From: an uncultured bacterium
GTDB lineage: Bacteria > Desulfobacterota > JADFVX01
Direction: 5' to 3'
Assembly: GCA_965372635.1 (NCBI GenBank)
Contig: CBDVDA010000001.1
Span: 2,860-66,859 of the forward strand
Length of the DNA: 64,000 bases
Position 1 is the stretch's first letter. Every line of letters starts with the position of its first letter. Below, one piece after another: positions 15,805 to 20,821 of this stretch. The notes below the pieces were generated by a model that searched no databases, had not been told where the DNA came from, and worked only from the letters and a program-made list of their open reading frames with translations. The position numbers and the translations under genes were made by a program.

Positions 15805-15893
15805 ATTTTTATTGTAGGGGCGGCCCTTGTGTCCGCCCTTTTTGCCAGCATTTAAAGGGCAACCACGAGGGTTTGCCCCTACGCAGACATTCC
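15805..15893. repeat. REP-like composite palindromic element, copy A. GTAGGGGC...GCCC-TTTTT terminator-like hairpin, then GGGCAAC..TTGCCC hairpin, then CTACG.
   Basis: Same family as 17069-17212 and 19147-19365. The ORF-track start at 15827 falls inside this repeat. Confidence 0.7.
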
Positions 15894-17068: not shown

Positions 17069-17212
17069 ATTTATTGTAGGGGCGCACCCATGTGTGCGCC
17101 CTTTTTTGCCAGTATTTGGGCAGACACGCGGGTCTGCCCCTACGCAAGATTTTTTGTGTAGAGGCGGCCCTTTTCGATACTTAACAGGGCAACCACAAGG
17201 GATTGCCCCTAC
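17069..17212. repeat. REP-like palindromic elements, copy B (about 1.5-2 units) between convergent genes
   Basis: GTAGGGGCGCACCCATGTGTGCGCCCTTTTTTGCCAGTATTTGGGCAGACACGCGGGTCTGCCCCTACG plus a second partial unit. The first hairpin followed by T6 looks like a bidirectional terminator. Confidence 0.7.
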
Positions 17213-18548: not shown

Positions 18549-19001
18549 TCAGAGTTCCCTGTTTTTAAGCATAAGACTGGCGATGCCCATGCGGGTGACT
18601 ATCCCTTCATAAACGCCTTCGTCTATAAGAAAGACATAGCCGGAATTATACTTTTCCATGATAGAGAGTGCCTTGACTAGGGGAGATGAGGCGCTTACGG
18701 TGGCGATGTTTTCGAGTACGAAGGATTCGACAGGCATATCGAGTAATTTTTTAACCTCAATTTTCGAGGTGGAAAGATGCCAGATATCATCGCCGAGAAG
18801 ATGGGCGGCCTTGACCATATAGCCGGGCGTAGCTGAAACCTTGAATGCATGGCGCATGGAGACCCGCCCTACAACCTTGTTGTTTTCATCGCAAAAGGGT
18901 ATGCCGGGTACGTTCTGTTTTACGCACTCTTCAAAGACCTCACCTATGGTCATGCCGGTCTTTGCCACAGCTGTTGGGATGACAATATCGAGCAGTTCCA
19001 T
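18549..19001 (-). CDS. CBS-domain pair protein
   Basis: 150 aa with two CBS-like modules. Its stop abuts the transporter start, so it is likely an operon regulatory subunit. Confidence 0.7.
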   Translation of the reverse strand: MELLDIVIPTAVAKTGMTIGEVFEECVKQNVPGIPFCDENNKVVGRVSMRHAFKVSATPGYMVKAAHLLGDDIWHLSTSKIEVKKLLDMPVESFVLENIATVSASSPLVKALSIMEKYNSGYVFLIDEGVYEGIVTRMGIASLMLKNREL

Positions 19002-19146
19002 TCCTTCTCCTTTCTCATTAAACGATATAGATTAATTCTACTAGAGAATGTGCAGATAAGCAAAAAAGGAGAAGAGAGGGGATGGAGGAGGATATGTAGA
19101 GGCTTGGCCTGCCAAGCCCTCAACGTAGATGCCATCAGACAATCAT

Positions 19147-19365
19147 GGGCAAGGCAGGCCATTGCCCCTACGAGTTTATCCGGTTAATATCTCGTTTGTT
19201 TTGTAGGGGCGTCACCCATGTGTGCGCCCATCTTTGCAATATTTCAAGGGCAGATACACGGGTCTGCCCCTACGAGTTCATCCGGTTAACAATACGTTTA
19301 TTTTATTGTAGGGGCGGCCCTTGTGGCCGCCTTTTTCGGTACCTGTCAGGGCAACCACTGTAGCA
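19147..19365. repeat. Tandem REP-like palindromic elements, copy C (about 2.5 units, period about 105 nt)
   Basis: Repeated ...CCCCTACGAGTT(T/C)ATCCGGTTAA...TTGTAGGGGCG..CCC...GGGCA....TGCCCCTAC. The ORF-track peptides in this region are translations of the repeat. Confidence 0.7.
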
Positions 19366-19373
19366 AAAAATGT

Positions 19374-19402
19374 TTGCAAAGGATGATTTCGGGGTATAGA
19401 AT
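19374..19402 (+). promoter_or_regulatory. Strong sigma70-like promoter (TTGCAA-N17-TAGAAT)
   Basis: -35 TTGCAA at 19374-19379, 17-nt spacer, -10 TAGAAT at 19397-19402. About 50 nt upstream of a strong terminator. Confidence 0.5.
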
Positions 19403-19455
19403 GAAGGCCGAATGTCGGGGTGGACCTGCTTTACATCAATGCGTGAATCCTCAAA

Positions 19456-19492
19456 GCCCGCACCGGCAAAACGGTGGCGGGCTTTTTTGTTT
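19456..19492 (+). terminator. Rho-independent terminator (GCCCGCACCG-GCAAAA-CGGTGGCGGGC then TTTTTTGTTTTT)
   Basis: Perfect GC-rich stem of 10-11 bp followed by a T-run. No annotated CDS lies upstream on this strand. Confidence 0.65.
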
Positions 19493-19549
19493 TTATGTTG
19501 ATTCAGATTTGTAATCTGAATCAGAAAGTTTCAGGTTCAAGTTGTAAAC

Positions 19550-20392
19550 TTGAACCAACGAAGAGAGCAGGTCAAATTGGATAACAAGATTCCAGTCAAT
19601 TCACTCGACTACAGCAGCATTCATGCTTGGGGGGAGTTCAAAAGATATTTAGTGACAGAAAACAGGTTTGTCCTTAACAAACAACAGCAGCTATTTGTCA
19701 GTAATGTAATAAAGGCAGTTCAGAATCGAACCACTTGTTTGAAACAGGGCGAAATATGGTATAGGGCAAGACGTTGTTTTGAAGATTATTCCGGCAGCCA
19801 CCCCAAAGTTGAGGGGAATAAAAAAATATATGGGAGATTCCCTGCAAAGAAAGAAGAGATGGACGCTCCTCCTATAAATTCTGCGACCGATGGACGAGCA
19901 AACCCCAGGCAGTTTCCAATGCTATACCTAGCTAAAAAAGAAGAAACTGCAATGACTGAAACTCGTCCTTTCCTGGGTGAGCTAATTACCTTGGCACCAT
20001 TCAAATTAGATTGTGATCTTAAGGTTGTTGATCTAGTATCTACTCAGTTCAATGGGAAAAATGATGATATTTGTCAAATGGAACAAAGAGGCGAAATTAC
20101 AAGTGTAGAAGTAGAAAATTACATATGGGAAATGATAGGGCATGATTTTTCCATACCTACCGATCCAAGTGACTCGGATGGCAAGTATGTACCCACCCAA
20201 TATTTAGCAGGGGTATTTAAAAACGCTGGTTTTGACGGTATTATGTACTCAAGTGCGTTAAAAAAGGGTGGTATCAATTTAGTTCTTTTCGATCCTTGCG
20301 CTGCAAACTCTCAAGTTGGGAAAATATTCTGTACGAGTGCTATTGAATACAATTTTGTTGGATCTGGGCCACAAAAAGAATATCGAAGTTAA
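19550..20392 (+). CDS. RES-domain protein (toxin-like, putative NAD+-targeting RES fold) with N-terminal extension, in a low-GC segment
   Basis: WYRARR (Arg), GRANPRQFPMLYLAKKEETAMTE (Glu region) and GIMYSSALKKGGINLVLF (Ser region) fit the R-E-S motif order. About 40% GC against about 58% in the flanks. No Xre-type partner is evident. Confidence 0.65.
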   Translation: MNQRREQVKLDNKIPVNSLDYSSIHAWGEFKRYLVTENRFVLNKQQQLFVSNVIKAVQNRTTCLKQGEIWYRARRCFEDYSGSHPKVEGNKKIYGRFPAKKEEMDAPPINSATDGRANPRQFPMLYLAKKEETAMTETRPFLGELITLAPFKLDCDLKVVDLVSTQFNGKNDDICQMEQRGEITSVEVENYIWEMIGHDFSIPTDPSDSDGKYVPTQYLAGVFKNAGFDGIMYSSALKKGGINLVLFDPCAANSQVGKIFCTSAIEYNFVGSGPQKEYRS

Positions 20393-20411
20393 CCAAGAAT
20401 AAGTTTGGATT

Positions 20412-20437
20412 GTCGGGTTACGCTTCGCTAACCCGAC
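20412..20437. terminator. Perfect 9-bp inverted repeat hairpin between convergent genes (GTCGGGTTA-cgcttcgc-TAACCCGAC)
   Basis: Seen directly in the sequence. No T-run follows, so it may act as an RNA stability or termination element. Confidence 0.4.
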
Positions 20438-20821
20438 CTACGCTAGGAACTTATTAACGCCTTCCACCAACTCCTTGTGGTTGAGCGGTTTTACGAGATA
20501 ATCGTCGGCCCCCGCCGCCTTTGCCAGTTCGATAAGCTTTTTATCCCCCATGGCGGAAAGCATAACGATGGGTATGTCCTTCAGCTTTTCAATCTCCCTG
20601 ATCCGCTTGCAGACCTCAATGCCGTCCACGTCCGGCATGGCGAGGTCGAGGAGAATGAGGTTCGGCACCTCTTTCTTGGCGAGGTAGACCCCCTCCGTAC
20701 CGTCTTCCGCTTCTATCGTTTCGAAATCCTCCGTTTTCAGGATTTCGGAGGCGAACTTCCGGTTCATCTCGTTATCATCGATAATCAGTATCTTCTTCAA
20801 CTTTAATCCTCTTTCGTCCAC
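20438..20821 (-). CDS. Stand-alone CheY-like response regulator receiver protein
   Basis: ILIIDD...LLDLAMPDVDG...MLSA...K motifs of a REC domain. 127 aa with no output domain. Confidence 0.85.
   Translation of the reverse strand: MDERGLKLKKILIIDDNEMNRKFASEILKTEDFETIEAEDGTEGVYLAKKEVPNLILLDLAMPDVDGIEVCKRIREIEKLKDIPIVMLSAMGDKKLIELAKAAGADDYLVKPLNHKELVEGVNKFLA

Follow-up and report, generated by a model that had tools for sequence, protein, structure and literature searches.

Within the 64,000-nt stretch of DNA analyzed here (the window), positions 19365 to 19494 of the forward strand carry a compact promoter-to-terminator unit that, judged from its conservation, probably belongs to a small, undescribed family of short leaders or small RNAs (sRNAs). 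We consider the window copy to be a self-contained transcription unit in deletion form that would act in cis as a terminator-based attenuator or insulator before a RES-domain gene, and we hold this reading tentatively, at a probability of about 45%. The sequence-only reading had proposed a discrete promoter-to-terminator unit at this place, and both its edges and its anatomy were borne out; its suggestion of a small RNA or an attenuator also remains the best one. The unit is not specific to RES, and the readings of it as an RNA antitoxin or as part of a type III toxin-antitoxin system are not supported. As a kind of element the unit is ordinary, whereas the family itself is undescribed and has no Rfam match.

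The promoter scanner identified a sigma-70-type promoter at 19374 to 19402, consisting of a -35 element TTGCAA (19374 to 19379), a 17-nt spacer, and a -10 element TAGAAT (19397 to 19402). Position, hexamers, and spacing agree with the original description of this promoter, but the term "near-consensus" does not, as only 9 of the 12 consensus positions are matched. Comparable promoter-like sites were found five times in 4 kb, against 4.9 expected in shuffled sequence, and judged on site frequency the hexamers alone are no better than chance. Just 5' of the -35 element lies an A-rich block followed by TGT (AAAAAATGT, 19365 to 19373), which is the left edge of the conserved unit. Transcription would start near positions 19409 to 19411. 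A conserved 5' block, TGTCGGGGTG (19413 to 19422), corresponds to approximately +3 to +14 of the predicted RNA and occurs only once in the 64-kb window. The remainder of the RNA body (19423 to 19451) is diverged, and the predicted RNA has a length of ~80 to 85 nt.

The right edge of the unit is an intrinsic terminator (19452 to 19494, forward strand), recognized from its hairpin energy and from its identity with a homologous copy described below. The 5' arm of the stem (19453 to 19465) pairs with the 3' arm (19472 to 19485) around a 6-nt loop (19466 to 19471), giving a 10-bp G/C-rich core, one bulged G (19476), and three A-U pairs. A simple terminator scanner missed this hairpin because of the bulge in the stem. 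With a hairpin energy of -22.6 kcal/mol and a T6GT5 tract (19483 to 19494) directly after the hairpin, the earlier description of a strong intrinsic terminator holds. A 33-mer of the terminator has a single occurrence within the window.

The unit had also been described as having no convincing ORF, and we agree with this. Its sole frame comprises 37 codons and a stop from ATG 19401, begins inside the -10 element, and has no Shine-Dalgarno sequence; because this ATG lies 5' of any plausible transcription start, it could not be translated from the TTGCAA/TAGAAT promoter. A leader-peptide attenuator has a translatable short ORF with a ribosome-binding site, and the window copy lacks these. In the nascent RNA the 5' block could instead pair with the 5' arm of the terminator as an antiterminator (-15.5 kcal/mol). 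This pairing (19413 to 19424 with 19458 to 19468) is attractive by eye but was no better than shuffles (P = 0.06), and the antiterminator candidate was rejected as not significant (P = 0.06, 0.36, and 0.86). A scan for tRNA and tmRNA genes found none. When Rfam was searched at permissive E values with the window region and the homologous contig, only weak, terminator-driven matches far below threshold were returned, so that the unit resembles no Rfam leader family above chance. With Rfam 15 at the gathering threshold, the whole window and contigs L019 and L021 gave no match reaching the gathering score, and the same run on contig L023 gave nothing for the unit either. An attC-like recombination site was considered and set aside, since no R'/R'' core (GTTRRRY) could be seen by eye.

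A homologous unit with the same architecture lies on the minus strand of metagenome contig JGI Ga0316190_10212436 (L010 here), the sole contig obtained when metagenomes were scanned for the 27 nt at the center of the hairpin. Upstream, the two copies have AAAAA.TGTTTGCAA in common, followed by the 17-nt spacing and GTATAGAAT. The alignment begins at the A-rich block, and the alignment of the promoter and 5' block scored 38, against a maximum of 33 in 2,000 dinucleotide shuffles (0/2,000). The sequence-only reading had named promoter-like hexamers not conserved in orthologous loci as evidence that would count against the unit. The hexamers are kept in L010 with the same spacing and at the homologous site, all 12 bases being identical while about half of the spacer is conserved, which is the pattern predicted for a functional promoter. 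The 5' block TGTCGGGGTG is likewise identical between divergent flanks and is located exactly 10 nt past the -10 element in both copies. The terminators share 42 consecutive identical bases (window positions 19452 to 19493). No similarity to L010 was detected 5' of the A-rich block (P = 0.22) or 3' of the T tract (P = 0.40). With similarity ending at either edge, what is conserved coincides exactly with the promoter-to-terminator unit.

The two copies differ in the body of the RNA. The L010 RNA would be ~140 nt long, against ~85 nt in the window, and ~52 nt of L010 are absent from the window, with the junction at ~19427/19428 in a MAFFT alignment. In L010, TGTCGGGGTG can form a local hairpin with a downstream CCCCG, a partner that is absent from the window. 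The missing segment also carries GGGGGAAT-N7-ATGGGGG, a Shine-Dalgarno-like run followed by an AUG, which recurs in the third copy described below. The window copy is most parsimoniously read, from this comparison, as a deletion derivative of an L010-like unit. The promoter region is ~73% identical between the two copies, in contrast to the perfect 42-nt terminator; by our arithmetic, an identity of that length under uniform divergence has a probability of 0.73^42, or ~2e-6. This identity is more than a plain terminator needs, and none of the readings weighed below explains it.

Downstream of the unit, L010 has a small AT-rich ORF and, after it, the gene for a 243-aa response regulator of a widespread family. 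A regulator 81% identical to this one is encoded on contigs L021 and L022, and a related unit is found directly upstream of its gene. Over 42 nt, the L021 terminator has 81% identity (P < 0.0005). It keeps 13 of 13 stem pairs, with one compensatory change from C-G to A-U and the bulge at the same place, and none of the three copies has an incomplete stem; a single compensatory pair is statistically not meaningful (170 of 500 shuffles). L021 and L010 also have GGGGGAAT-N7-ATGGGG.AGA in common, at an equal distance from the terminator (P = 0.0125). In both, the frame opened by this motif runs into or through the terminator hairpin. The L021 frame has 24 codons with a stop just past the U tract, and the peptide and the frame within the hairpin differ between L010 and L021. 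The family is thus known from three distinct copies (the window, L010, and L021/L022). A marginal candidate in L019 (P = 0.05) was left out of this count, and an nhmmer profile of the three copies detected no further copy in all DNA retrieved in the analysis. Scans of viral contigs for the unit gave nothing or a chance match, and a genome contig scan with the CBS protein encoded next to the locus gave nothing.

Three considerations favor a role in cis: (i) in the window, L010, and L021 alike, the unit is followed at a short distance by a gene on the same strand; (ii) in the relatives, an upstream ORF extends into the terminator, as is typical of attenuators; and (iii) a strong terminator before a toxin-like gene with no antitoxin gene next to it makes biological sense. 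The spacing between unit and gene is 85 nt for RES in the window and ~50 nt for the response regulator in L021, and the probability of finding co-orientation in three of three contexts by chance is ~1 in 8. Terminator-based attenuators and 5' leaders include those of Escherichia coli pyrBI and the thr and trp operons. The units resemble them in having a promoter, a short leader, a strong terminator, and a gene on the same strand within 50 to 90 nt, and the Shine-Dalgarno sequence and AUG frame of L010 and L021, running into or through the hairpin, recall ribosome-mediated antitermination of the pyrBI type. They differ in that the window transcript has no Shine-Dalgarno sequence or AUG, no runs of regulatory codons are present, the L010/L021 peptide is not conserved, no significant antiterminator was found, and the downstream genes differ between copies.

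Under the cis reading, RNA polymerase would start near 19409 and most transcripts (~80 to 85 nt) would end in the U tract near 19490, so that the RES leader would be reached by rare read-through only. Some RES transcription may be added by a weak promoter-like site downstream, which was recognized by eye and matches 8 of 12 consensus positions (TTGTTT at 19487 to 19492, N17, and TGTAAT at 19510 to 19515). The expected outcome would be low expression of RES, a laterally acquired gene next to which no antitoxin gene is found. As the window copy is without the central segment, it may be locked off or decaying.

A free-standing, trans-acting sRNA gene, with the 5' block and/or the 3' hairpin serving as a seed or protein-binding site and the adjacency to RES being incidental, is an unlikely but credible alternative. 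The units resemble sRNA genes in size, in having their own promoter, in the terminal hairpin with its U tract, in the conserved 5' block, and in that homology is confined to the RNA gene, spanning from just before the -35 element to the U tract and not the downstream leader. The predicted sigma-70 promoter and intrinsic terminator are both conserved among the homologues, and the invariance of 42 nt, including the loop and the bulge, would suggest a sequence-specific role. A -10-like hexamer is found 3' of the terminator in both L021 and the window, so that the downstream genes may have their own promoters, and this fits a free-standing sRNA equally well. Against this reading, TGTCGGGGTG and its complement are not matched in excess within the 64-kb window (5 matches against 3.6 expected), a third of the RNA has been lost from the window copy, and, unlike sRNA genes of described families, the unit has no Rfam 15 family and a large deletion or insertion inside the RNA distinguishes its copies. 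A cis role accounts no less well for the consistent co-orientation of the unit with the next gene and for the short distance between them.

We regard it as rather improbable that the window copy is a nonfunctional relic, that is, a decayed leader of the L010 type that has lost its central Shine-Dalgarno sequence and AUG and in which the terminator is merely left over. The 52-nt gap relative to L010 removes exactly the motif common to L010 and L021, the window copy is unable to fold the 5' hairpin that L010 can form, and the spacer around the unit is rearranged, filled with REPs, and lineage specific. Nevertheless, the 12 hexamer bases, the 10-nt block, and the 42-nt terminator have stayed intact in spite of divergence in the spacer and body, as selection, but not decay, would predict. 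Less probable still is a portable promoter-terminator dock, in which the invariant hairpin, with 42 nt the same in two unrelated genomes and its bulged base kept, would mark the capture site of near-silent single-gene cargo placed after the U tract. The cargo could be RES in the window and the AT-rich small ORF between the unit and the response regulator in L010, and the G-rich 5' block might provide conditional antitermination. The perfect terminator with foreign genes right after it in two genomes hints at such a cargo insertion site, in a sample too small for the claim to be made. Returning to the cis-acting unit, if it is transcribed as predicted, it would represent a candidate new sRNA or leader family of uncultured Deltaproteobacteria-like sediment bacteria and an example of how a toxin-like RES gene without an antitoxin gene next to it can be tolerated behind a strong terminator.

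The gene following the unit encodes a RES-domain protein (19577 to 20392, forward strand; Pfam RES, E = 5.7e-17). The first in-frame TTG (19550) would give a longer frame, but a database protein (P0001; 271 aa, 100% identity) corresponds to TTG 19577, and this start is more likely. The gap of 58 nt reported earlier between the terminator and the gene is therefore correct for TTG 19550 and becomes 85 nt for the more likely start. The gene has a GC content of 0.38 to 0.42, against 0.5 to 0.6 in its flanks, as a low-GC single-gene insert. An alignment showed that the invariant residues R107, E128, and S226 are kept, and the AlphaFold model (mean pLDDT, 78) matches Pseudomonas putida RES, ParT, and diphtheria-toxin-type ADP-ribosyltransferases. 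The protein is a member of a rare long subfamily, and a search of 5.8 billion proteins yielded only seven homologues. The protein has an extra N-terminal helical part; the N-terminal 110 aa have no Pfam match, and we thus have no evidence of a fused antitoxin domain. PADLOC and NCBIfam searches with the RES protein returned no match.

The remaining proposal, that the mini-RNA is an RNA antitoxin or part of a type III-like arrangement controlling the RES toxin, is very improbable. In its favor, RES has no adjacent protein antitoxin gene, and the order of promoter, terminator, and toxin gene superficially resembles that of type III loci. However, a specific link to RES, which the sequence-only reading had implied, is not supported: blastn and profile searches showed that none of the retrievable RES homologues (L001 to L005) is preceded by the unit, among them the closest (60% identity) and a 38% homologue, whose upstream regions are unrelated to that of the window, and the other copies of the unit precede unrelated genes. 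Neither with the RES leader nor with the complete RES mRNA did the best duplex of the mini-RNA body exceed dinucleotide shuffles (P = 0.18 and 0.68), so that the extended complementarity to the toxin mRNA that characterizes type I and other antisense systems is not seen and the suggested antitoxin function finds no basis in pairing. The analogy to type III loci (ToxIN, CptIN, and TenpIN) had been drawn from the layout of repeats, terminator, and toxin. The locus does share with them a promoter, a noncoding RNA, and a read-through-limiting intrinsic terminator between the RNA and the toxin gene, here 85 nt before RES. The analogy breaks down elsewhere, because tandem direct repeats of ~34 to 40 nt are not present inside the transcript (TRF found no tandem repeats in 19000 to 19700), the REP repeats lie 5' of the promoter, the unit does not travel with the toxin, and the toxin is a RES/ART-fold enzyme and not an endoribonuclease of the ToxN/AbiQ/CptN/TenpN type.

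The locus also differs from the RES-Xre type II systems (MbcTA, ParST, P. putida Xre-RES, and NatRT). It has the RES domain with its Arg, Glu, and Ser residues in common with them, but the protein is longer (271 aa), no Xre/DUF2384 gene is adjacent or nearby, the flanks of RES encoding a CBS protein and a response regulator, and the neighbors of the homologues are variable. ORFs in 19001 to 19577 gave no Pfam match at E ≤ 1, and none is antitoxin-like. Next to the plasmid homologues of RES (~30% identity) the partners vary, among them a serine protease and a ~320-aa hypothetical protein, and no annotated Xre neighbor of the long plasmid RES proteins was found in the PLSDB gene tables, which are incomplete; these observations also speak against an RNA antitoxin. 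The same is true of the characterized RES toxins in the literature search, all of which pair with Xre proteins (e.g., PMC6436930). The absence of linkage to RES, of complementarity, and of tandem repeats, together with the RES/ART fold, is why the RNA antitoxin and type III readings are not supported, and the main message for RES biology is accordingly negative.

The weakest reading, chance promoter-like hexamers beside an orphan terminator with no unit at all, draws on the frequency of 9/12 hexamer matches in shuffles and on the convergent origin of GC-rich terminators, but it is largely refuted by the comparison with L010, in which hexamers, spacing, 5' block, and terminator are kept together in the same order, indicating more than chance. 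Such convergence was indeed encountered. A blastn search against plasmids and phages gave a single match, a terminator on a Niveispirillum plasmid with 86% identity over 44 nt that follows an ordinary gene; it was rejected as a convergent ordinary terminator and no homologue. The 23-mer of the hairpin core, CCGCACCGGCAAAACGGTGGCGG, had six matches in six unrelated genomes (L011 to L016), all inside coding sequence and rejected as coincidental; five of the six encode RTGKTVAV in genes that we take to be gltD-like. These two cases show that similarity of the terminator alone is no evidence of homology, and the case for homology lies in the joint conservation of the promoter, the 5' block, and the terminator in the same order.

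Between the T tract and the RES coding region, outside the conserved unit, the AT-rich RES leader contains two perfect palindromes on the forward strand. Palindrome 1 (19499 to 19523; 11-bp arms, 3-nt spacer) overlaps the weak promoter-like site mentioned above, and palindrome 2 (19534 to 19556; 10-bp arms, 3-nt spacer) has the half-site RTTCARRTT in common with it. Their centers are 34 nt apart, and they are the only two matches in 64 kb. The palindromes are absent from the RES homologue loci examined. The leader (19493 to 19600) folds with a z score of -4.3, and a third small hairpin extends over the TTG 19577 start. The two palindromes could be repressor operators or hairpins of the RES 5' untranslated region.

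Upstream of the unit, a CBS-domain gene (18549 to 19001, minus strand; Pfam CBS) is followed by a REP-type array of GTAGGGGCR inverted pairs (19100 to 19345), which is 5' of the promoter and outside the transcript. The window holds nine REP elements, against 0.7 expected by chance, in clusters at 15814 to 15882, 17076 to 17212, and 19163 to 19316 (~15.8, 17.1, and 19.2 kb); they are confined to ~3.5 kb of the 64-kb window. Their earlier assignment to a generic family was right: they recur at other places in the window and represent a generic repeat of the genome. A search with the CBS protein led to L009 as the closest relative (83% identity). In L009, a spacer of 178 nt, compared with 1,436 nt in the window, separates the CBS gene from a co-oriented gene upstream, and the shared part is limited to the 64 nt adjoining the CBS gene. 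The final 13 codons of this upstream gene of L009 (KEELIERLEKFLE) are read as resembling the C terminus of the window response regulator. The REPs, the unit, and RES are all absent from the CBS orthologue contigs, including the response-regulator/CBS spacer of L009, and the other CBS relatives have wholly different neighbors.

A REP-like hairpin, GTCGGGTTA...TAACCCGAC (20412 to 20437), was also observed between the convergent RES and response-regulator genes of the window (20399 to 20459). On either side of it are the arms of an 8-nt inverted repeat, AATAAGTT/AACTTATT, and one of these arms falls in the final codons of the response-regulator gene.

The gene for the 243-aa response regulator has a conserved ribosome-binding site, AAAAGGGGGGAAACC-ATG, and the cargo upstream of it differs in each contig: only the RNA unit in L021, a small ORF in L010, three unknown genes in L019, an LRR protein in L020, and a GNAT acetyltransferase with membrane proteins in L023. 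The region 5' of this gene (in L010, L019, L020, L021/L022, and L023) looks like an insertion hotspot. Repeated CTTTGCGCG-type motifs, e.g., ctctgcgttcttggcgcctttgcgcgaa, are found 5' of the RNA units in L021 (3680 to 3790) and L019 (40 to 85) and may be another repeat family or a regulator-binding site. At the start of L023, positions 47 to 141 match the 3' terminus of a group II intron (RF00029 of Rfam) with 43.6 bits, which is over the gathering score.
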